NCBI GenBank assembly: GCA_964617715.1
Contig: CAZTZN010000002.1
Location: forward strand, 23,441 to 87,440
Direction: 5' to 3'
Source: an uncultured Armatimonadia bacterium
Lineage (GTDB): Bacteria > Armatimonadota > Zipacnadia > Zipacnadales > UBA5352
Length of the DNA: 64,000 nt
Below are positions 10,388 through 20,891 of the stretch, in pieces. The translations under genes were made by a program, and so were the position numbers. The notes beneath the pieces are model-generated. The model searched no databases, was not told where the DNA came from, and worked only from the letters and a program-made list of their open reading frames with translations. Position 1 is the stretch's first letter; each line of letters starts with the position of its first letter.

Positions 10388-12844
10388 ATGCGGCGATTGC
10401 CGATGCCACGAGAGCTGACTCCGGACGAATGCCGATGGCGTTGCGACGCAGACCTGTTCGAGTTCGCGACCACCGCCGAACTGCCCGAGCAGGTCGAGCC
10501 GATCGGGCAGGACCGGGCAACCCGGGCGTTGACCTTCGGCGCCTCGATCCGGAGCGAGGGCTACAACATCTTCGTGCTCGGTCAGCCGGGCAGCGGGCGC
10601 CATACGCTGGTGCTCGACGCGCTGCGTCGCCGGGCGGCCGAACTGCCGGTGCCCAGCGACTGGTGCTACGTGCACAACTTCGACGAGCCCCGCCGCCCGC
10701 GGGCGCTGGAGCTGCCGGCGGGGCGGGCGATGGAGTTCCGCGATGACATGAAGGAGCTGATCGAGGACGTGGATCGCGAGATCACGCGCGCCTTCGAGAG
10801 CGACGACTACTCGAGTCGGCGCGACGAGGTGGTGCGCGAGTTCCGCGAGCGGCGCAACGCCCAATTGCAGGAGCTGGAGCGCGAGATCCAGGAGGCCGGA
10901 CTGGCGATCGGCCGCGGGCCGGCGGGGCTGATCGTCGCTCCCGCACGCGACGGCGAGGTGCTCAACCCCCAGGAGTACCAGCAGCTTCCGCCCGAGGAGC
11001 GCGAGCAGATCGACCGGCGACGGCACGAGCTGCAGGAGAAACTCGACGACGTGATGCGGCGCGGCCAGCGCATCGAGAAGGAGGCGCGCCGACGTGTGGC
11101 CGAGCTGGACCGCGAGGTCGCGCAGTTCGCCGTGGGCGGACTGTTCGATGACATCCGCGCTCAGTATGAGGGCCTCGAGCAGGTGCTCGACTACCTGGAG
11201 CAGGTGCGCGAAGACATCGTTGACAACCAGGGGATCTTCCGAGCCGAACACAGTGACGAGGGAGCCCCCGAGGGCGCGCCCGCTCCACTGCCCGCGCTGG
11301 GCGCGCCCCATGCGCCGCAGGGGCCGTACAATCGCTACGCCGTGAACGTGCTGATCAGTCACAGCGGCGATGATGGGGCCCCGGTCGTCTTCGAGAGCAA
11401 GCCGACCATCGAGAACCTGACCGGCGACATCGAACATGTCTCGTACATGGGCGCGCTGCTCACCGACTTCACCATGATCAAGGAGGGCGCGCTGCACCGC
11501 GCCAACGGCGGCTACCTGGTGGTGGACGCGCTGGCCATCCTCACCCGGCCCTTCGCGTGGGAAGCGCTCAAGCGCGCACTTCAGGAGCAGAAGGTCTGCC
11601 CTGAGTCGGTGCGCGAGCACCTGCGATTGATCTCAACGGTGTCACTTGAACCTGAGCCGATCCCGCTTGAGGTCAAGGTGGCGCTGGTCGGCACACCGAT
11701 CGTCTACTACCTCCTGTACGCTCACGACGAGGAGTTCCGCAAACTCTTCAAGGTCAAGGCCGACTTCAACCTGCAGATGGACCGGACCGACCATGCGGCG
11801 CGGCGGTACGCAGAGTTCATCGCGGCCTGTTGCCACCGCGAGAGTCTGCCCCACTTCGCGCCCGATGCGGTCGCTCTGGTGGCCGAGGAGGGCGCGCGTC
11901 TCGCCGGCGACCAGGGCAAGCTGTCCACGCTCTTTATCGACGTGGCCGACCTGGTGCGCGAGGCCGCGTACTGGGCGCAACGCGGCGGGCAGTCGGTGGT
12001 GCGCGCCGCCCACGTCCGCCAGGCGGTGGACGAGGGGGTCTTCCGCGCCAACCGCATCGAACAGCGGATGCTGGAGCTGATCGAGCAGGGCACGCTCATG
12101 GTGGACGTGGCAGGAACGGCGGTGGGCCAGGTCAACGGCGTGGCCGTGCTGCCGATGGGAGACTATGCCTTCGGCAAGCCCACGCGCATCACCGCACGCA
12201 GCTTCCTGGGCAAGCCCGGCGTGATCAGCATTGACCGTGAGGCCGAGATGGCCGGACCAATCCACAACAAGGCCAGCTTGATCCTGGGCGGCTATCTGGG
12301 CGAGAAGTTCGCCGTGGACCAGCCGCTCAGCGCCGCGGTGACGCTCGCCTTCGAGCAGGTCTACGAAGAGGTCGAGGGCGACAGCGCGGCGGCGGCAGAA
12401 CTCTATGCCCTGCTCTCCAGCCTCGGCGAGGTGCCTCTGCGCCAGGATCTGGCGGTGACCGGCTCGGTCAACCAGCACGGACAGATCCAGGCGGTGGGCG
12501 GCATCAATCAGAAGATCGAGGGCTTCTTCCGCGTCTGCCGTCTGCTGGGGCTGACCGGCACTCAGGGGGTCATCATCCCCGCCGCCAACGTGCGCCACCT
12601 CATGCTGCGCGAGGAGGTGCTGAGGGCGATGGCCGACGGTCAGTTCCACATCTACGCGGCCGAGACGGTGGATGAGGCCGTGGAGTTGCTCACAGGCATG
12701 CCGCTGGGCGAGCGCGACGCGCAGGGCCGCTTCGCTGAGGGCACTCTCGCCGCACGGGTCGCGCAACGCCTGGAGGCGATGGCCGAGGCGCACCGACGCT
12801 ACGATGGCGGCGATAACAACCGGGAGGACACGAAGAGCCGGTAA
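10388..12844 (+). CDS. Lon protease homolog of the YcbZ/LonC type: degenerate AAA-like domain plus S16 Ser-Lys protease domain
   Basis: The C-terminal half aligns closely by eye with E. coli YcbZ (FEQVYEEVEGDSAAAAELYALLS...VGGINQKIEGFF...GVIIPAANVRHLML). The P-loop-like segment GQPGSGRHT has Arg in place of the Walker A lysine. The Walker B region YLVVDALAI lacks the Glu. The alternative start ATG 10403 has better SD spacing. Confidence 0.75.
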   Translation: MRRLPMPRELTPDECRWRCDADLFEFATTAELPEQVEPIGQDRATRALTFGASIRSEGYNIFVLGQPGSGRHTLVLDALRRRAAELPVPSDWCYVHNFDEPRRPRALELPAGRAMEFRDDMKELIEDVDREITRAFESDDYSSRRDEVVREFRERRNAQLQELEREIQEAGLAIGRGPAGLIVAPARDGEVLNPQEYQQLPPEEREQIDRRRHELQEKLDDVMRRGQRIEKEARRRVAELDREVAQFAVGGLFDDIRAQYEGLEQVLDYLEQVREDIVDNQGIFRAEHSDEGAPEGAPAPLPALGAPHAPQGPYNRYAVNVLISHSGDDGAPVVFESKPTIENLTGDIEHVSYMGALLTDFTMIKEGALHRANGGYLVVDALAILTRPFAWEALKRALQEQKVCPESVREHLRLISTVSLEPEPIPLEVKVALVGTPIVYYLLYAHDEEFRKLFKVKADFNLQMDRTDHAARRYAEFIAACCHRESLPHFAPDAVALVAEEGARLAGDQGKLSTLFIDVADLVREAAYWAQRGGQSVVRAAHVRQAVDEGVFRANRIEQRMLELIEQGTLMVDVAGTAVGQVNGVAVLPMGDYAFGKPTRITARSFLGKPGVISIDREAEMAGPIHNKASLILGGYLGEKFAVDQPLSAAVTLAFEQVYEEVEGDSAAAAELYALLSSLGEVPLRQDLAVTGSVNQHGQIQAVGGINQKIEGFFRVCRLLGLTGTQGVIIPAANVRHLMLREEVLRAMADGQFHIYAAETVDEAVELLTGMPLGERDAQGRFAEGTLAARVAQRLEAMAEAHRRYDGGDNNREDTKSR

Positions 12845-13108
12845 CGAGGCGAAAAGTCAGGGGCCGACGGGCAGTCCCGGGGGGGGAGGACATTCCGCCG
12901 GCCCGTGCCTCACGCAGCATAGCCGCGCGAGGAAACCTTTGTCTCGCCCCGCATTATACCACATTTCGGATTGTTACCAACCTCTTAAGGCAAAAAACTC
13001 GGCCAGGAATCTCTACCGAAGGTCACCTGCCGACGCGAGCCCCCACTGCTTCATCGCAAAAAGCCGCACCTGGGCGTGCAGGCGGCCACGAATCGGGCAC
13101 TGCACCCC

Positions 13109-13137
13109 TTGCAATGTGCCGGGGCTTGCGCTATAAT
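13109..13137 (+). promoter_or_regulatory. Near-consensus sigma70 promoter TTGCAA-N17-TATAAT for the rimP-nusA-infB operon
   Basis: TTGCAA at 13109-13114, a 17-nt spacer and TATAAT at 13132-13137, about 115 nt upstream of the rimP ATG. Confidence 0.55.
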
Positions 13138-13173
13138 ACTCAGCGACGAAACCACATCTCAGGGATTCTTTCT

Positions 13174-13209
13174 GGGAGTGGGCCGCGCGGCCCACTCCCT
13201 TCGTTTTCC
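13174..13209 (+). terminator. Leader hairpin GGGAGTGGGCC-GCGC-GGCCCACTCCC followed by an interrupted U tract (UUCGUUUUCC): candidate attenuator/NusA-dependent terminator
   Basis: Perfect 11-bp stem read directly from the sequence, about 35 nt downstream of the predicted TSS. A second hairpin CCGCGACCT-GTTCA-AGGTCGCGG sits at 13208-13230. Confidence 0.45.
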
Positions 13210-13249
13210 GCGACCTGTTCAAGGTCGCGGCGAGAGCGCCGGTGCGGAC

Positions 13250-13735
13250 ATGAGGATCAGAAAGCATCCGGTTGTGCGCAAGATCGAGGCCGAAGTTGAG
13301 CGCCTGCTTGCGGACTTCGGGTACGAACTGGTTCAACTCAAGTACGGAGGTGCGAGCAGCGGGCGGTCGCTGACGGTACTGTTGGACCGCCCGGAGGGCG
13401 TTACGGCCCAGGACTGCTCAGAGATGAGCCGAAGGCTGTCGATGCTGCTGGATACACTGGACCCGATCCCGAGTTCCTACACACTGATCGTGTCATCGCC
13501 GGGGCTGGACCGCCCGCTCACGCGCGATGGGGACTTTCAGCGCTTCGCGGGGGAACTCGCGGCTGTGCGGCACGTGGCGGCGGACGGATCGCGGCGCACC
13601 GACAGGGGCGTGCTGCAGGGGCTCAAGGACGACCAGGTGGTTATGCAAGTCAATGGCGATACCGTACACATCCCGCTTGCCGAGGTCGAGGAGGCGAACC
13701 TGGTCTACGACTGGGACGCTCACGACGGGCGCTGA
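13250..13735 (+). CDS. rimP: Ribosome maturation factor RimP
   Basis: ATG at 13250 inside track ORF 13076..13735. The translation is RimP-like and the gene sits directly upstream of nusA-infB, the conserved synteny. Confidence 0.75.
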
Positions 13736-13787
13736 GACCAGCCTTGGAGCAGGCTGATGGCAGCCTTCCCGCAAGGAGTGTGGACGA

Positions 13788-15053
13788 ATGAACGGCGAGT
13801 TTCTGGACGCGCTTGAGCAGCTTCAGCGCGAGAAGGACATCCCGATGACTGCCCTCATAGAGACGGTGGAGGCCGCAATGGCCTCGGCCTACCGCAAGCA
13901 CTATGGGGTCAACGACGATGTGCGGCTCGAGATCGACTTCGAGAAGCGCACGGTCCGCATGATCGCCCGCACGCTGGTGGACGATGAGGCCATCGACGAC
14001 GGCCAGGGCGTTGACCAGACGGCAAGTGTCAAGACCGAGGAGCACGAGGTGGACGCCGCGGACTTCGGTCGCATTGCTGCGCAGACCGCCAAGCAGGTGG
14101 TCATGCAGCGCGTGCGCGAGGCCGAACGCGAGATCGTGTTCGACGAGTTCAGCCATCGCGTGGGCGAGATGATCACCGGCGAAGTGCAGCGCAAGGATGC
14201 CCGCAACGCGTACATCGCGGTCGGGCGTACCGAGGCGCTGCTGCCCGCCAACGAGCAGATCCCGGGCGAGACCTTCCGTTTTGGCGACCGACTCAAGCTC
14301 TACGTTCTCGACGTGCGCAAGACCACACGCAACCCGCAGATCATCCTGTCGCGCCGCCACCCCGGGCTGGTGGTCCGACTCTTTGAGCAGGAAGTGCCCG
14401 AGGTCTTCGACGGCGTGGTCGAGATCAAGTCGGTGGCGCGCGAGGCCGGGGCACGCTCGAAGGTCGCCGTCATGTCGCGCGATCCGCAGATAGATCCGGT
14501 GGGCGCGTGCGTCGGGCACCGGGGCGCGCGGGTGCAGTCGATCGTTGATGAGTTGCGCGGCGAGAAGATCGACATCGTGCGCTACTCCGACGATCCCGCT
14601 GAGTACCTCAGGAGTTCGTTGTCGCCGGCCAAGGTCTCGCAGGTGGTCCTCAACGAGGAGGACCGCTCGGCCGTAGTGGTGGCTCCCGACGACCAGCTCT
14701 CGCTCGCCATCGGCCGGCGCGGGCAGAATGTGCGACTCGCGGCCCAACTGACCGGGTGGCGCATCGACATCCAGAGCCAGACTCAGTGGGCGACCCAGGC
14801 CGAACGCGCGGCCGAAGAGCAGGCGAAGGCGATCGCGGCCGAAGCCAAGCGAGTGCGTGTCTACGAGCTGGCCAAGGAGCTTGACGTGCCCAGCCCTGAG
14901 TTGGTAGAAATCATGAAGGAAGAGGGCATGGATGTGACCAGCCATGCCAGCTCGGTAACTGCCGAGGAGGCGGACATTATCCGCGACCTGCTCCTCGGTG
15001 GCGAGGGCACACTCGACGACATTGAACTCGGCAACATCGAGATTGAGCTGTAA
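13788..15053 (+). CDS. nusA: Transcription termination/antitermination factor NusA with an unusual C-terminal IF2_N-like domain
   Basis: N-terminal domain, S1, KH1 and KH2 (ends LTGWRIDIQ) are recognisable. The roughly 75-aa tail [41 protein letters not shown] resembles the IF2 N-terminal domain. Confidence 0.9.
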
Positions 15054-17234
15054 ATGAGGCGGGACGGGGTGCCCGAACCCGACCCGCACAGCAGCAATCA
15101 GGCGAAGGCTGTGCCGGAGGTGTACGTATTGGCTGACCAGGTCCGAATCTTCCAACTCGCGAGGAAGCTTGGACTGCGCAGCGAGGCTCTGCTGAAGGTT
15201 CTCGGAGACCTCGGACTTGAGGACGTAAGCGCGGCCTCGAGCATTGACATGGAGACCGCCCGCGCGGCCGCCGAGATTCTGGCGGAGCAGGCGCGGGAGG
15301 CCCGCAAGCGTGCTGAGGAGGAGGCCGCCCGTGAGGCCGCGGCTGCTGAGGCCGCAGCCCGCGCGGCCGCGGCCGCCGCCGAGGAGGCCGCAGAGGCCGC
15401 AGAGGCCGCTCAAGAAGAGACCGCACCGGCCGGGGAGGAAGTTGTGGTGGCGGGGGAGGAGGTCGCCGAAGCCGGGGAGGGAGAGACAGAGGTCGGCGCG
15501 GAGGCGGTGGAAGAGGCCGACGAGGAGGAGGCGCCCCAGCGCTGGGTGCCGGCATGGGCGGCACCGGAAAGCCTGCGCAGTCTCGAAGAGCAGCTCGCGG
15601 AACTCGAGATTGAGGAGGAGGAAGAGGAGGAAGAGTGGTCGGTCGCCCTGCCCGAGGAAGCGCGACGGCCCTCCGGCGATCGCCCCGAGCACGCAATCGA
15701 CGTGCCGCCGGTCGTCGCCGTGCTCGGCCATGTTGATCACGGCAAGACCACTCTGCTCGATGCCCTGCGCGAGACCGACGTGGTCTCGACTGAAGCAGGC
15801 GGCATTACGCAGCACATCGGGGCCTCCGAGATTCAGCTTCCTGACGGCAACACCATCGTCTTCGTGGACACCCCGGGCCACGCCGCGTTCACCGCGATGC
15901 GGGCGCGCGGCGGCCAGGTGGCGGACATCGTCGTGCTCGTGGTGGCGGCGGACGACGGCGTCATGCCGCAGACCGCCGAGGCGATCGGTCACGCGCGGGC
16001 TGCCGGCGTACCCATCATTGTGGCCATCAACAAGATGGACATGCCCGGCGCCGACGCCGCCCGAACCAAGCAGCAACTGCTGGAACACGAGCTGGTCGCC
16101 GAGGACTTCGGCGGCGATACCATCATGGTCCCGGTTTCGGCGCTGGCGAAAGAGGGCCTGGATGAGCTGCTTGAGATGATCATGTTGCTGGCTGAAGTGC
16201 AGGAGTTGTGGGCCGACCCCGAGGCGCCGTTCACCGGTGTGGTGGTGGAGGCAGGCCGAGATGACAGTCGGGGTCCGGTGGCCACGATCCTGGTGCGCAA
16301 CGGCGAGATCAAGGTCGGTGACGTGGTCGTCTGCGGCAGCGCGTATGGGCGAGTGCGGCGGCTCAACGACTGGCGCGGCAAGTCGGTCAAGCGCATGGGG
16401 CCCGGCCACCCGGTCGAGGTCATCGGGCTGTCCGAGGTGCCCGATGCCGGGGAGATCATGACCGTGGCTGAGAACATCAAGGTGGCCCGCGAGATTACCA
16501 CCGAGCGTGAGCAGCAGATGCGCGCCGCCGGCCTGGAGGGTAGTGGCCGCGCGTCCCTCAAGGACCTCTATCGCGAGCTGGGTGAGCTGACGATCAAGGA
16601 TCTCAATCTCGTGGTCAAGGCCGATGTGTCCGGCTCGGTGCAGGTGCTCGAAAGCCAACTGCGAGCCCTGGACCGGCAGCTCGAAGAGGTGGATATCAAT
16701 ATCATCCACTCGGGCGTGGGCGAGGTCAATGAGTCGGACGTGCTGTTGGCGGTCGCCTCCAACGCCATTATCCTGGGCTTCCACGTGGGCGTGACCGAGG
16801 CCGCCGAACGCACCGCCGAGGCCGAGCACGTCGAGATCCGCACCTACGACATCATCTACGAGGCCCTCGACGACATCCAGCGGGCCATGCTGGGGATGCT
16901 CGAGCCGATCTACGAGGAGCAGCTCATCGGGCGCGCCCGCGTGCTGCAGATCTTCCGCATCTCGCGCGTGGGGGTCGTGGCCGGCTGCGTCATCACGGAC
17001 GGCTACGCCCAGCGCGGCGCCAAGATGGTGGTGACGCGCGGGCGCGATGAGGTGGTGTTCGAGGGCACACTCGACTCGCTCCGGCGCTTCGATAATGAGG
17101 CCCGGCAGGTGGAGGCCCCGAACGAATGCGGCATCTCCACCCCCGACTTCCGCGGCTGGGAAGAGGACGACCGGATCGAGTTCTTCGCCCAGGTCGAGGT
17201 GCCGCGCCCCACAACCTTCAAGAGCACGCGCTGA
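15054..17234 (+). CDS. infB: Translation initiation factor IF-2
   Basis: The ATG abuts the nusA stop (TAAATG). It has an IF2_N-like N-terminus ([29 protein letters not shown]), acidic/Ala-rich low complexity, a G domain ([25 protein letters not shown]) and a C-terminal beta-barrel. Alternative GTG starts lie at 15111 and 15120. Confidence 0.9.
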
Positions 17235-17262
17235 TACCCGGCCCGTCGTTGGAGTCGTGCCG

Positions 17263-17550
17263 ATGCCCACCGTGGTAGGGCTGCTGACGGTCGAGCTGTT
17301 CATCTCCGACGCCGCCTCGCTCAAGGACAGGCGCCGCGTGGTCAAGAGCCTGCTCGACCGCCTGGCGAACCGCCACAACGTGTCGGTGGCGGACATGGGC
17401 CCGGATAACTCCCCGACGTGCGCCCGGGTGGCCATCGTGACCGTCGCCAACGAGGAGGCGCACGTGCACCGCGTCCTGAACGGAGCGCTGGGGCTCGTCG
17501 AGGCAGAGCCGCGCGCGGTCTGCGAGCGCAGCGCGATCGAGATCCTGTAG
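17263..17550 (+). CDS. DUF503 family protein (YlxP-like)
   Basis: ATG at 17263 within track ORF 17047..17550. It sits between infB and rbfA, the conserved position. Confidence 0.65.
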
Positions 17551-17608
17551 TCGCAGCGACGATCGCCATCTGCCCGTCCGCCCACAGGCACAAGGAGGAT
17601 CGGCCGCC

Positions 17609-17989
17609 ATGAGCACGCATCGCATGGAGAGCGTCGGCCGCGAGCTGCAGGAGGAGATCGCCGAGATCGTCCGCACGGAGATCGATGACCCCCTCGTCGG
17701 ATTTGTGACCATCACCGACGTGGAGATGTCGCCCGACCTCAAGCACGCACGCGTGTACTTCAGCGTGCTGGGCGACGAGCAGCAGAAGCGGGACAGCGCC
17801 CGAGGCATCCGGCGCGCCGCCAAGTTCATCCGCGGCCGCGTCGCCGAGCGCATTGAGCTGCGCTACGTGCCGACACTGCGCTTCCTGCTCGACGAGACCG
17901 CCGAGCGCGCTCAGCGCATCGAGATGCTCCTGCGCCGGGAGGCCGAGGAGCTGCAGCTCGAGGAGCCGGAGCCTGATGACGAGCAGTGA
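17609..17989 (+). CDS. rbfA: Ribosome-binding factor A
   Basis: 126-aa translation with the RbfA KH-like core (RVYFSVLGD...) and conserved synteny. Confidence 0.85.
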
Positions 17990-18956
17990 CGCCTGCGCCC
18001 GGGTGGCGCAGGCCGTCCGCGGGGCCGGCACCATCTTCCTGGTGGCGCACGAGAACCCCGACGCGGACAGCGTCGGCTCGCTGCTCGCGCTGCGCGACAT
18101 GCTACTGGCGCTGGGCAAGACCGTGCACGCCGCGACGCCCGACCCCCCGCCCGACCGCTTCAGCTTCGTCGTCGGCTTCGGCGCTCTGACTACGCAACCA
18201 CCGCCGTGGACGCCCGACCTGGCCATCGCTCTCGACTGCGACGGCCCGAGCCGGCTGGCCGTGCTTGAGGAGGCCTTCAGGGGCGCCGCGTGCACTGCGG
18301 ACGTCGATCACCACCGCGGCGTCTCGGCCTTCGGCGACATCCGCTGGGTGGTACCCGAGGCGCCCGCGACCGCCTGGCTCGTGGCGCAGCTCGCCCACGA
18401 GCTGGGGCTGCCCCTGACCCCGCCCCGCGCCGAGGCGCTCTACGTGGGCCTGATCGCCGACACCGGCGGCTTCCGCTTCACCAACACCTCGCCCGCGGCC
18501 CTGCGGCTGGGGGCCGAGCTGGTCGAGGCGGGCGCCGACCCGTCCACGCTGGCGCGCCGTGTATTCACCATCCGACCGCTGGCGGCCGCCCTGCTCGAGG
18601 CACGTGCGCTCGCGTCGCTCGAGATGGCCGACGATGGCGTGCTCATCGCCAGCCTCACCCGTGACGACTTCGTGGAGACGGGAGCGAGCCCGGCGGACAC
18701 CGACGGATTGATCGACTCTTTCCGTGACATCATCGGCGTGCGCGCTGCGGTGCTGATGAAGGAGAGTGAGTCCGGCGTCTGGCAGGTCAGTCTGCGCGGC
18801 AACGGGGTGGACGTCGCACGAGTGGCCGCACGCTTCGGCGGGGGCGGACACAAGTTCGCGGCGGGTTTCACCGCTGCGGGCGCGCGCGAGCAGATCAGGC
18901 GCAGCATGCTGGAGGCGCTTGCGCCTGCGCAGGACGGGGGCGCCGCGCATGGCTGA
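17976..18956 (+). CDS. nrnA: DHH-family phosphoesterase NrnA (bifunctional oligoribonuclease / pAp phosphatase)
   Basis: ATG at 17976 overlaps the rbfA stop by 14 nt. It has the DHH motif (FLVAHENPDADSVGS) and a DHHA1-like C-terminus (GGGHKFAAG). Confidence 0.75.
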   Translation: MTSSDACARVAQAVRGAGTIFLVAHENPDADSVGSLLALRDMLLALGKTVHAATPDPPPDRFSFVVGFGALTTQPPPWTPDLAIALDCDGPSRLAVLEEAFRGAACTADVDHHRGVSAFGDIRWVVPEAPATAWLVAQLAHELGLPLTPPRAEALYVGLIADTGGFRFTNTSPAALRLGAELVEAGADPSTLARRVFTIRPLAAALLEARALASLEMADDGVLIASLTRDDFVETGASPADTDGLIDSFRDIIGVRAAVLMKESESGVWQVSLRGNGVDVARVAARFGGGGHKFAAGFTAAGAREQIRRSMLEALAPAQDGGAAHG

Positions 18957-19866
18957 CGGCCTGCTGAACATGCTCAAGCCTCCCGGCATGACCTCGCACG
19001 ACGTCGTCGATGGGGTGCGACGCATCGTCGGCACGCGGCGGGTCGGGCACACCGGAACACTCGACCCGGCGGCCGCCGGCGTGATGGTACTGATGATCGG
19101 TGCGGCCACGCGGCTGAGCGAGTTCCTCACCGCCCGCCCCAAGGTCTATCGTGCCGAGATCACCTTCGGGATCGCCACCGACACGCTCGACGGCGAAGGC
19201 ACCATCGTGGAGCGCGCCGATGCGCGCGCCCTGCGAGCGGCGCCGGTGCGCGAGGCGCTGGCGGCTCTGACCGGCGAGCTGCAGATCGTGCCGCCGATGT
19301 ACTCGGCCGTCTGGCACCACGGCCGCCGGCTCTACGACATCGCCCGCAGCGGCGAGACGGTCGAGGTGGAGACCCGCACGAGTGTGATCGACCGCTTCGA
19401 GCTGCTGGACTTCCAGCCCGGCAGTCCGGCGCGCGCCCTCACCGAGATCGCCTGCTCCAGCGGCACCTACGTGCGCTCCCTGGCGGCGATGGCGGGCGCA
19501 ATCGTGGGCCTGCCGGCCTACCTGTCGCTGCTGGTGCGCACGCGCGTTGGCCCACTGGAGATCGCAGACGCCCTTACCGGCCGCGAGCTGACACAGGTGG
19601 TGCGTGACGGACGCCTGAGCGAGGTGTTGATCGCCCCGGAAGATGCGCTGACCGACTGGCCGCGGCTGGTGGCCGACGCGCCGACCGCACGTGCCTTGAG
19701 CAACGGCATGCGAGTCCCCCCATGGCAGCCGGTCGGCGCCGGGCACCTGCTGGTGATGCGCGAAGACGGACGGCTGCTGTGCGTGGCAGAGGCGCTCGAG
19801 ATCGAGGGCACGCTGATGGTCCAGCCTCGGCGCCTGGTCACGAGTGAGGACGTGCCGCGGTCATGA
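18949..19866 (+). CDS. truB: tRNA pseudouridine(55) synthase TruB
   Basis: ATG at 18949 overlaps the nrnA stop by 8 nt. The TruB catalytic motif is GHTGTLDPAAAGVMVL. Confidence 0.85.
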   Translation: MADGLLNMLKPPGMTSHDVVDGVRRIVGTRRVGHTGTLDPAAAGVMVLMIGAATRLSEFLTARPKVYRAEITFGIATDTLDGEGTIVERADARALRAAPVREALAALTGELQIVPPMYSAVWHHGRRLYDIARSGETVEVETRTSVIDRFELLDFQPGSPARALTEIACSSGTYVRSLAAMAGAIVGLPAYLSLLVRTRVGPLEIADALTGRELTQVVRDGRLSEVLIAPEDALTDWPRLVADAPTARALSNGMRVPPWQPVGAGHLLVMREDGRLLCVAEALEIEGTLMVQPRRLVTSEDVPRS

Positions 19867-20891
19867 AGATCGTGCACTGGGCGCCTGACATGGTCCTGCC
19901 TCAACGGCCACGGGTGGCCGTGCTGGGGGCGTTCGACGGTGTACACCTCGGCCACGCCCGCACCATCCGGGCCATGCGCGCCATCGCCCATCGGCGTGAC
20001 GCCGAGGCGGTGGTGCTTACCTTCGACCCCAGCCCGCGCGAGTTCAGCGACGGCGTGCGCCGCCCCGGCCGGCGTCTCACCACCAGGGACGAGCAGATGT
20101 ACTACCTGCGCCGCCTGGGCGTGGATCTCGCGGTGATCTTCGACTATCCCGGAGAGATTCGCGATCTCGATCCCGAGGACTTCGTGCGCGACGTGCTCGT
20201 CGGGCAGTTCAACGTCATTTGCGTGTCGGCGAGTGAGACCCACCGCTTCGGCCGTGGCGGCGCAGGTGATCCGACGCTGCTGCGCAAGCTGGGCGAGAAG
20301 CTGGGGTTCGGTGTTGAATCAGTGCCGCCGGTGATCGTCGGCGGCGAGCGCGTTTCAAGCACGCGGATCCGCAAGCTGCTTGCCGCGGGCGCGGTCGCCG
20401 CGGCGGGGGCGCTGCTGGGCCGGCCCTACGCCCTGTGTGCCACCGTCGTCTCGGGCCAGGGCGTGGGCACGCAGTTGGGCTTCCCGACCGCCAACCTGCA
20501 GATCCCGCCCGAGAAGGTCCTGCCGCGCGACGGCGTATACGCCGGATTGTGCGGCGTGGTACGCGACGGCGACCTGGACGCGGTGGGGCAGGCGCGCGCC
20601 GCCGCGATCAACATCGGGGTGGCGCCCACCGTGCGCGGCGATGAGCGTGTCGTAGAGGTGCACCTCGTCGGCCGGCACTGCGACCTGCGCGGCGCGTGCG
20701 TCAAGACGGAGTTCCTGCGCTGGCTGCGGGGCGAGGAGCATTTCGCCAACCTGCAGGAGCTGGCCGCGCAGATCGGACGCGACGCCGCGCTGGCGGCCGA
20801 GCTGGTCGGCGAGCCGCTTCCCGAAGAGCTGCGCCGCTTCGAGCGCGAGTGCCATGTGGACTACGTCATCCGCCCCCGCGACGCGGGCTGA
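19863..20891 (+). CDS. ribF: Bifunctional riboflavin kinase / FMN adenylyltransferase
   Basis: Overlaps the truB stop by 4 nt. FAD synthetase N-terminal half (VAVLGAFDGVHLGH) and riboflavin kinase C-terminal half (GFPTANL..., E..H). Confidence 0.85.
   Translation: MKIVHWAPDMVLPQRPRVAVLGAFDGVHLGHARTIRAMRAIAHRRDAEAVVLTFDPSPREFSDGVRRPGRRLTTRDEQMYYLRRLGVDLAVIFDYPGEIRDLDPEDFVRDVLVGQFNVICVSASETHRFGRGGAGDPTLLRKLGEKLGFGVESVPPVIVGGERVSSTRIRKLLAAGAVAAAGALLGRPYALCATVVSGQGVGTQLGFPTANLQIPPEKVLPRDGVYAGLCGVVRDGDLDAVGQARAAAINIGVAPTVRGDERVVEVHLVGRHCDLRGACVKTEFLRWLRGEEHFANLQELAAQIGRDAALAAELVGEPLPEELRRFERECHVDYVIRPRDAG

Follow-up and report, generated by a model that had tools for sequence, protein, structure and literature searches.

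The function of the N1 domain of IF-2 was obscure for two decades before 2025. In E. coli NusA, the AR1/AR2 repeats make protein contacts (with alpha-CTD, lambda N and IF-2 N1) and are also involved in KH1 autoinhibition. E. coli IF2N, reportedly described by Laursen in 2003, offers a comparison system for the fold of the domain considered here. Domain I (N1) of E. coli IF-2alpha has since been found to bind NusA at its C-terminal region using pull-down, BPA cross-linking and NusA C-terminal deletion, with KH2-AR1 as the region of binding (Metelev & Johansson, Nat Commun 2025, PMC12297416). Whether this contact is general was left as a question for other bacteria, neither terminus being conserved (PMC12297416). 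The Armatimonadota locus described here concerns the same two proteins and the same ends of them as the E. coli system, IF2_N of the N1 type on one side and the stretch that follows KH2 in NusA on the other; however, in E. coli N1 is carried on IF-2 and acts in trans, whereas here an N1-type domain is a covalent part of NusA. Also unlike the E. coli system, AR1/AR2 is absent here and IF-2 retains a divergent N1 of its own.

The window, meaning the whole 64,000 nucleotide stretch of DNA that was analysed from an uncultured Armatimonadia bacterium, contains nusA followed by infB (Table 1). The initial annotation had placed nusA at 13788..15053, and both this position and the protein sequences quoted with it were confirmed. 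NusA matched TIGR01953 with 394 bits (cutoff 253.4) over residues 4-332, with the NTD, S1, KH1 and KH2 domains in order, and KH_NusA_2nd (PF26594) was among the precomputed domains of its relatives. An AF2 model of the whole protein had a pLDDT of 84, and its nearest PDB structures were NusA chains. Between KH2 and the tail domain the model places a helix (pLDDT about 77-89) that varies in length and sequence between relatives. The tail itself gave no match to an HhH family among the Pfam profiles at E up to 1, and the HhH-like GIG motifs present in control NusA tails were absent from it. NusA in this genome and in a large related clade is without HhH-type AR1/AR2. The gamma-proteobacterial AR1/AR2 (HhH)2 module is, like the tail, an acidic accessory module after KH2, but its fold is unrelated to that of the tail; HhH/AR-like nusA tails were found in control loci from Lentisphaerota, Desulfobacterota and Omnitrophota, but not here.

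Table 1. Positions of nusA, infB and their parts in the window
Feature	Position	Strand	Description
nusA	13788..15053	+	421 aa plus stop; TIGR01953; Pfam NusA_N, S1, KH_5, IF2_N
NusA core	13797..14777	+	NTD res 4-115, S1 123-184, KH1 220-286, KH2 about 296-330; Pfam stretches
Linker helix, KH2 to tail domain	14778..14846	+	res 331-353, Ala/Glu/Gln-rich; AF2 helix
N1-type IF2_N domain of NusA (by profile)	14847..14996	+	res 354-403, predicted beta-alpha-alpha-beta-alpha; PF04760, N1-type HMM, fold match
Conserved C-terminal peptide, 18 residues	14997..15050	+	res 404-421; alignment A1; net charge -6
nusA-infB spacer	15054..15128	+	75 nt, open in frame, not conserved as coding
infB Shine-Dalgarno site GGAGG	15116..15120	+	invariant in 4/4 aligned loci, 8-9 nt before TTG
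infB	15129..17234	+	conserved TTG start 15129-15131; 701 aa plus stop; TIGR00487
Sole IF2_N domain of IF-2	15138..15275	+	res 4-49, divergent, N1-type by profile; PF04760, one stretch
IF-2 low-complexity linker	15285..15698	+	res 53-190, Ala/Glu-rich, E8 run included

The suggestion that NusA ends in an IF2_N-like domain, for which a profile check had been proposed, was borne out by both profile and fold. PF04760 matched NusA residues 355-400 (window 14850-14987) with 46.4 bits and an E value of 3e-12, the gathering cutoff being 25.3 bits, and the isolated tail scored 49.7 bits. The tail had been described as collinear with the N-terminus of IF-2, and it could indeed be aligned by BLASTP to the start of the IF-2 ORF with 33% identity over 57 residues (E 2e-7); one 3-residue gap falls in the lead-in and the domain itself is ungapped. 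In the AF2 model the tail forms a beta-alpha-alpha-beta-alpha structure with pLDDT above 90 over its residues 1-50. Foldseek ranked chains of the IF-2 N domain from T. thermophilus highest among the PDB matches to this model (TM 0.66-0.70, probability 1.0), with weaker neighbours among the MerR/RacA/BldC DNA-binding domains, and the same T. thermophilus chains were found by the tail sequence profile. The NusA tail is a true IF2_N domain that shares homology with the N-terminus of the IF-2 encoded next to it, and its fold is predicted to be the circularly permuted winged-helix of the IF-2 N domain. The T. thermophilus domain (PDB 4b3x, 4kjz, 3j4j, 5lmv) shares the fold (E 6e-12, TM 0.70) at 33-35% identity, but it forms the N-terminus of a GTPase, whereas the domain here lies at the C-terminus of NusA and is followed by an acidic GGEGTL peptide.

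The initial annotation also had the nusA stop abutting the ATG of infB (TAAATG). This abutment is an artefact of taking the longest ORF, as the start codon of infB is a TTG that lies 75 nt downstream. Relatives do not have the ATG found at 15054, and their conserved start is GGAGG-N8-TTG; the distance from GGAGG to TTG is 8 nt here, the TTG is also kept in loci L001, L003 and L004, and a Leu codon occupies the start position in at least nine lineages. A GTG that could serve instead does not lie in frame in L001 or L004. Among aligned relatives the spacer sequence diverges, with indels, up to the Shine-Dalgarno site, and across loci its length is 63-98 nt with that site conserved. No Rfam match for a regulatory RNA in the spacer was obtained in a search of 12000-20000, and the predicted RNA fold of the spacer was not significant (z -1.29).

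The IF-2 encoded by this infB scored 655.8 bits against TIGR00487 (cutoff 424.4) and carries the Pfam domains GTP_EFTU, EF-G_D2 and IF-2. As had been proposed, it has only one IF2_N domain, a single PF04760 stretch with 32.9 bits that scores about 30-32 bits against an N1-type HMM; neither PF04760 nor the subtype HMMs found a separate pre-G-type domain in it. Residues 53-190 stand where many IF-2s carry a pre-G IF2_N, and this low-complexity linker (45 D+E, 40 A and 11 K+R in 138 residues) had no Pfam or HMM match. An IF-2 with a single IF2_N is not unusual, contrary to the earlier view, since 57 of 191 IF-2s (about 30%) were of this kind in the survey of Margus et al. 2007.

It had been suggested that NusA holds the other copy of the IF-2 domain, that is, that IF-2 once had two IF2_N domains, of which one passed from infB to nusA through gene fission, gene fusion or a shift of stop and start. 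A set of 68 IF-2s from other phyla supplied profiles for the N1 type and the pre-G type. Seven NusA tails scored 61-70 bits against the N1 profile and 7-16 bits against the pre-G profile (68.7 and about 10 bits for the tail in the window), while the genuine pre-G domains of L089 and L090 scored 58-60 bits against the latter. By these scores the NusA tail is classed as N1-type, like the extreme N-terminus of IF-2, and not as pre-G (N2-type). Since the tail is N1-type and what IF-2 is without is the pre-G type, NusA does not hold a "missing copy", and the tail is probably not a relocated pre-G domain. In favour of a crossing, nusA and infB are neighbours that share a reading frame, and IF-2 is without a pre-G IF2_N in all 13 loci that bear the tail, while two of three tail-less relatives (L089 and L090) have two IF2_N domains; judged by eye, IF-2 of the basal tail-bearing locus L091 also seems to have a decayed pre-G domain. 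However, the third tail-less relative, L093, has an IF-2 with a single IF2_N, so the rule that had tied the NusA tail to a single-IF2_N IF-2 does not hold, and a strict tail/pre-G anticorrelation that looked promising from L089 and L090 was weakened. The covariation gave an unweighted Fisher p of about 0.025, a value confounded by phylogeny, and no clear pattern of complementary change in IF-2 N1 was seen where the tail decays. Together with the retention of an N1 at the N-terminus of IF-2, the spacer with its conserved Shine-Dalgarno site and the frequency of single-domain IF-2s, these observations make a boundary crossing of this kind very unlikely. Of the earlier proposal of a domain transfer, the homology of the tail to the IF-2 N-terminus stands, while relocation of a pre-G domain does not and IF-2 has kept its own N1.

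In three homologue searches the best 120 matches were listed in each. PF04760 was present in all of the best 120 NusA relatives listed (63-97% identity), and the tail was present in nearly all of about 150 related NusA clusters listed, further subclades included. At sequenced loci, the tail was found in nine of nine Armatimonadota and in none of 11 control nusA genes from other phyla, which instead have tails that are either HhH/AR-like or acidic and disordered. When 1.84 billion cluster representatives were searched by profile, the NusA proteins among the 150 best matches were all of the Armatimonadota type (P0060, P0183 and fragments). The initial annotation had asked for a check of the junction, where an artefact could stem from assembly, a frameshift or annotation; only the fact that both ORFs share a frame speaks for one. 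The stop codon was kept and infB was separate in every tail-bearing locus examined (13/13), the same gene order with a separate infB recurs in independent assemblies (JGI, NCBI, ENA and Logan), and well over 100 protein clusters show the stop and the separate gene, so that an assembly error is ruled out and the probability of any such artefact is negligible. Full-text literature searches found no paper describing NusA with an IF2_N domain, although the domain itself is already marked by automated Pfam annotation.

The tail, with a mean pairwise identity of 66%, and IF-2 N1, with 64%, are under similar purifying selection. In all eight genomes compared, the tail had only 29-35% identity to the N1 of its own IF-2, against 47-55% to the N1 consensus of other phyla, and the tail and IF-2 N1 have been distinct since before the split of these lineages. 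An N1-type domain may have been duplicated in ancient times and fused to the 3' end of nusA, and the most economical source would be infB next to it, by its 5' end. Such descent from the resident gene is only plausible, because the consensus N1 of other phyla resembles the tail more than the N1 in IF-2 of the same genome does.

Net charge is about -6 for the N1 domain and about -14 for linker, domain and C-terminal peptide together. The NusA tail stands where E. coli has AR1/AR2 and is highly acidic; since this is so, a protein-binding adaptor would be more likely than an RNA binder, and since E. coli N1 binds the NusA C-terminus, such an adaptor could act on the NusA/IF-2 axis. That the N1-type tail is an adaptor of this kind, arising from an ancient N1 duplication fused to nusA, is the explanation we prefer, and we give it about an even chance of being right. 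In one form of it, the tail would dock in cis on the KH2-proximal surface otherwise bound by IF-2 N1 in trans, resulting in an AR2-like autoinhibition or a competition switch. Alternatively, RNAP-bound NusA would acquire the partner specificity of IF-2 N1. Either way, the transcribing polymerase would be tied to translation initiation, and by analogy a functional NusA/IF-2 link would have its experimental precedent in E. coli. It counts against this reading that the E. coli interface involves AR1, which is missing from NusA here. IF2_N is also a promiscuous module, so its presence on NusA need not concern IF-2: it is found fused to TIR, KH_1, R3H and N6-methylase and in tandem repeats, and PF04760 is a portable module in these architectures as it is here, although none of these other partners is a core transcription factor as NusA is.

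A replacement of AR1/AR2 with no specific relation to IF-2, which would autoinhibit RNA binding by KH1/KH2 and/or bind the RNAP alpha-CTD or another regulator, would fit the matching position, the strong acidity and the helical linker, as well as the other kinds of tail that NusA of other phyla carries there. Tail-less relatives, moreover, have merely an acidic disordered NusA tail. We consider this unlikely, as it leaves unexplained why selection for this role would favour an IF-2-type domain, and one that has stayed nearer the canonical N1 consensus than its counterpart in the resident IF-2, and the E. coli N1-NusA interaction makes a link to IF-2 more economical. Distinctly unlikely is a role as one more winged helix for binding nucleic acids, by which NusA would enlarge its S1-KH1-KH2 RNA platform. 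A classification of RNA-binding folds lists the IF-2 N-terminal domain as a circularly permuted wHTH (PMC2848206), and the IF-2 N2 subdomain that touches the 30S in PDB 7uiu is a neighbour of the tail (rmsd 1.4 A, 50 residues); the co-occurrence of IF2_N with KH_1 and R3H and the DNA-binding domains among the weaker fold neighbours would also agree with such a role. RNA binding is nevertheless disfavoured by the net charge, and E. coli Domain I, which contains N1, was without noticeable interaction with the ribosome (PMC12297416).

It is possible, although we rather doubt it, that Armatimonadota have hard-wired the IF-2 N1 module into NusA as a lineage-specific coupling of transcription to translation initiation, with the divergence of IF-2 N1 and the loss of the pre-G domain as co-adaptations. 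NusA on the RNAP would then itself display the domain by which IF-2 recognises its partner, and the tail would either bring in that partner or control NusA through cis-mimicry of IF-2 binding. If true, the fusion would serve as a "Rosetta stone" indicating that the E. coli NusA-IF-2 contact is ancient and widespread. A NusA/N1 fusion that is selectively maintained on the scale of a phylum is an independent evolutionary hint that both modules belong together, and that a physical link between transcription and translation initiation exists outside E. coli as well. With KH2 and N1 on one polypeptide, it is also a naturally compact subject for structural and biochemical study. The known C-terminal modules of NusA would also gain a third kind, beside the (HhH)2 acidic repeats and plain disordered tails.

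The tail is not uniform within the clade. P0300 carries two tandem tail modules, and in some subclades the tail is truncated after the N1 domain, has GGEGTL replaced by a long disordered region, or is missing, so that no single part of it is indispensable. Directly after the IF2_N domain lies a clade-specific peptide, LLxGGEGTLxDLExG, with pLDDT below 60 (low model confidence) in the AF2 model. Among the top profile matches listed, the GGEGTL peptide was found only in Armatimonadota NusA and not in IF-2 N-termini. In alignment A1, G52 and G53 of this peptide are invariant and T56 is nearly so, and in one subclade the GGEGTL motif is retained even where the N1 signature has decayed.

By its profile matches, the 421-residue nusA product is a bona fide NusA (see table). 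Residues 355 to 400, after KH2, match the Pfam IF2_N family (PF04760) with 46.4 bits and an E-value of 3e-12 (gathering score 25.3), and the isolated 88-residue tail, comprising a linker helix, the IF2_N domain and an acidic C-terminal peptide, scores 49.7 bits. BLASTP aligned this tail with the start of the IF-2 ORF at 33% identity over 57 residues (E 2e-7), with the domain itself ungapped and a single gap of 3 residues in the lead-in. A profile built from 33 NusA tails (alignment A1) matched the N domain of Thermus thermophilus IF-2 in its solved structures (4b3x, 4kjz, 5lmv and 3j4j; E 6e-12), and the same chains were the closest PDB neighbours (TM 0.66-0.70, probability 1.0) of the AlphaFold2 model of the tail, a beta-alpha-alpha-beta-alpha fold with pLDDT >90 for the first 50 residues. 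In the full-length NusA model, a helix of 23 residues (331-353) connects KH2 to the domain. Given these Pfam, BLASTP, profile and fold matches, the IF2_N-like NusA C-terminus reported in the initial annotation is real, far beyond what chance would give.

A nucleic-acid-binding winged helix is also suggested, since this is the fold class of the IF-2 N-terminal domain (PMC2848206), the next structural neighbour of the tail is the N2 subdomain of 30S-bound Pseudomonas IF-2 (7uiu, rmsd 1.4 A over 50 residues), and IF2_N co-occurs with KH and R3H domains. This reading is disfavoured by net charge (linker -2, N1 -6, C-terminal peptide -6); such strong acidity speaks against binding of RNA and points to contacts with protein instead. 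The acidic repeats AR1/AR2 of E. coli NusA hold the same position as the tail and are alike in having a protein-contact role. Acidity is a general trait of N1 domains.

Many IF-2s carry two IF2_N copies, N1 at the extreme N-terminus and N2 (pre-G) just ahead of the G domain. That this is the usual state was an overstatement: single-domain IF-2s are common, making up 57 of the 191 counted by Margus et al. 2007, and the Thermus protein likewise has one IF2_N, which is N1-type by sequence. IF-2 in the window does have only one, with no separate pre-G domain, and the subtype profile search found no separate pre-G domain in IF-2 at any of 13 tail-bearing loci. With one profile for each type, built from 68 IF-2s of other phyla, the NusA tails scored 61-70 bits against N1 and 7-16 bits against pre-G, while the N-terminal domains of Armatimonadota IF-2s scored 29-45 bits against N1. 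By these scores NusA therefore has a second N1-type domain and not, as had been proposed, the copy that IF-2 lacks. The same test disfavours transfer of that copy, or fission, across the nusA/infB boundary, and the evolutionary account first offered is mostly not supported.

PF04760 was found in all of the 120 best NusA homologues (63-97% identity), taken from NCBI, JGI, ENA and Logan assemblies; those that carry a name are Armatimonadota MAGs. In the loci of seven different tail-bearing relatives, nusA is closed by a stop codon and infB lies separately downstream, so that an artefact at the junction, for which a check of the assembly had been advised, is excluded. Scanned with the tail profile, the GTDB species representatives gave at least five full-length matches, all from Armatimonadota where named; among the matches listed, Armatimonadia and Ca. 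Zipacnadia are represented as classes. Nearly all of the other 75 loci listed were IF-2 N-termini of other phyla, the remainder being a few ORFs or fragments without a G motif in reach. The N1 domain was present in NusA in 9/9 Armatimonadota loci and in none of the 11 nusA genes within reach in control loci (Lentisphaerota-type, Desulfobacterota, Omnitrophota and Lactobacillales genomes included), which all carry HhH/AR-like repeats or an acidic disordered tail at the C-terminus. Against 1.84 billion cluster representatives the profile matched 4435 proteins at E <=1e-3, and among the best 150 of these the only NusAs were Armatimonadota-type (P0060, P0183 and fragments); less similar fusions may exist in other phyla. 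In a large clade NusA has a conserved C-terminal module of a third type. Automated Pfam annotation had already flagged IF2_N in Armatimonadota NusA; no account of the fusion turned up in the papers searched.

Features of the nusA region in the window
Feature	Coordinates	Strand	Remarks
LonC-type AAA protease gene	10388-12844		upstream of rimP
LonC-type gene to rimP	12845-13250		~400 nt; no convincing ORF, no Rfam family match
rimP, nusA, infB, DUF503 gene, rbfA, DHH/DHHA1 gene, truB		all +	in this order; conserved cluster, probably a single operon
nusA	13788..15053	+	421 aa; TIGR01953 394 bits (cutoff 253); Pfam NusA_N, S1, NusA KH domains
Acidic insertion, NusA N-terminal domain	13971-14039		residues 62-84; pLDDT <50 at 68-79
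25 codons before TTG	15054-15128		open, in frame with nusA and infB, not conserved
GGAGG	15116-15120		conserved
infB	15129..17234	+	701 aa; TTG start; IF2_N at residues 4-49, where ordinary IF-2s also have it
IF-2 linker	15285-15698		extreme Ala/Glu-rich low complexity; 45 D+E and 40 Ala in 138 residues; E8 run
DUF503 gene	~17250-17591		~95 aa in relatives; position conserved, with infB and rbfA as neighbours at all related loci examined

The junction was aligned between the window and three relatives. The ATG at 15054 is not kept, and the sequence downstream of the nusA stop diverges with indels until conservation returns at the GGAGG, which is followed after 8-9 nt, 8 in the window, by TTG and the IF-2 N1 coding sequence; in at least nine lineages the TTG position is a Leu codon ahead of a ..VR(V/I)F.. 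motif. The infB start was therefore placed at this TTG. The alternative GTG lies in another reading frame in two of these relatives. Because the 25 preceding codons are open and in frame, longest-ORF calling yields a false 726-aa IF-2 abutting nusA, and the TAAATG junction described earlier is such an artefact, the true spacer being 75 nt (63-98 nt in relatives) with no Rfam match and no significant RNA fold. Several related subclades (L085, L086, L089, L091, L092 and L093) carry ylxR at this junction, where the window's clade has the spacer alone. The Ala/Glu-rich IF-2 linker, which occupies the place of the pre-G domain of many IF-2s, varies widely in length and sequence among relatives. The acidic insertion in the NusA N-terminal domain is ~65-90 residues longer in P0183 and its relatives.

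Mean pairwise identity across eight genomes is 66% for the tail N1 and 64% for the IF-2 N1, and in each of them the two share 29-35%, so the duplication must be old, with no gene conversion. At 47-55% identity, the N1 consensus of other phyla resembles the tail more than the tail's own IF-2 N1 does. In the crown group, which includes the window, N1 is followed by LLxGGEGTLxDLExG and an acidic end. One subclade retains the GGEGTL peptide with its N1 signature decayed below the Pfam threshold, and its member P0300 (locus L085, 3501-4991) has two tandem degenerate-N1 and GGEGTL modules; in other subclades N1 is kept and NusA then stops or runs into a long acidic/Ala-rich disordered region. Four relatives (P0307, P0310, P0312 and P0313; 57-58% core identity) have an acidic disordered tail only, and fall near the base beside N1-only lineages in a rough NJ tree whose branching order is unreliable. 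In the three tail-less relatives whose loci were read, IF-2 has N1 and a strong pre-G domain (58-60 bits, two Pfam stretches) in two and a single N1 in the third, and L091, a basal tail-bearing lineage, has an apparent decayed pre-G domain, judged by eye. The suspected covariation of the NusA tail with IF-2 architecture holds as a tendency (pre-G in 0/13 tail-bearing versus 2/3 tail-less loci) but not as a rule, and phylogeny confounds it. In bits, the IF-2 N1 scores as a canonical domain (50-80) in the basal lineages L087, L088, L091 and L090 and as a diverged one (29-45) in the crown group, which would fit a scenario in which NusA gained a canonical N1 and the IF-2 copy diverged afterwards.

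In E. coli, IF-2 Domain I, consisting of N1 and the two beta-strands after it, binds NusA's C-terminal region, as shown by pull-down, in-cell photo-cross-linking and NusA C-terminal deletion, and AF3 puts the contact on KH2 and AR1 (Metelev and Johansson, PMC12297416). Those authors proposed early coupling of transcription and translation initiation and stated that it is not known whether the contact is conserved. Fer et al. 2026 found only a weak correlation between IF-2 N-terminal and NusA C-terminal extension lengths, and did not mention a NusA-IF2_N fusion. In view of the E. coli contact, we take the Armatimonadota fusion as a domain-fusion ("Rosetta stone") sign that N1 and the C-terminus of NusA work as partners, and it bears directly on the current transcription-translation coupling question.

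This IF-2-specific reading is tempered by the fact that IF2_N is a mobile module. Among the matches to the tail profile in the 1.84 billion representatives, it occurs outside IF-2 and NusA (P0123, P0125, P0128, P0129, P0170, P0133, P0146 and P0241) with TIR (Thoeris-like), KH_1, R3H and N6-methylase/DUF3427 (a 2717-aa protein), and as 2-4 tandem copies within small proteins. It is quite possible that the tail has nothing to do with IF-2 and is instead an AR2-like module for autoinhibition or for alpha-CTD binding. We prefer a mechanism in which the cis N1 and the C-terminal peptide, with its alternating hydrophobic and acidic residues, would dock on the KH2-proximal surface of NusA, to be displaced by, or compete with, the N1 of IF-2 itself or RNAP; alternatively, the tail could confer the partner specificity of the IF-2 N1 on NusA. 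The anatomy of the fusion is solid, and the mechanism is plausible but unproven. Five loci from Acidimicrobiia/Actinomycetes MAGs (L037, L056, L061, L064 and L079) contain ORFs that open with a highly conserved N1, KKIRVYELA[RK]ELGLTNKEGLEL..GVKSHSSSIE, and have no G-domain motif within the same ORF; such ORFs may encode free-standing N1 proteins, belong to frameshifted infB genes, or carry very long linkers that the locus end truncates.
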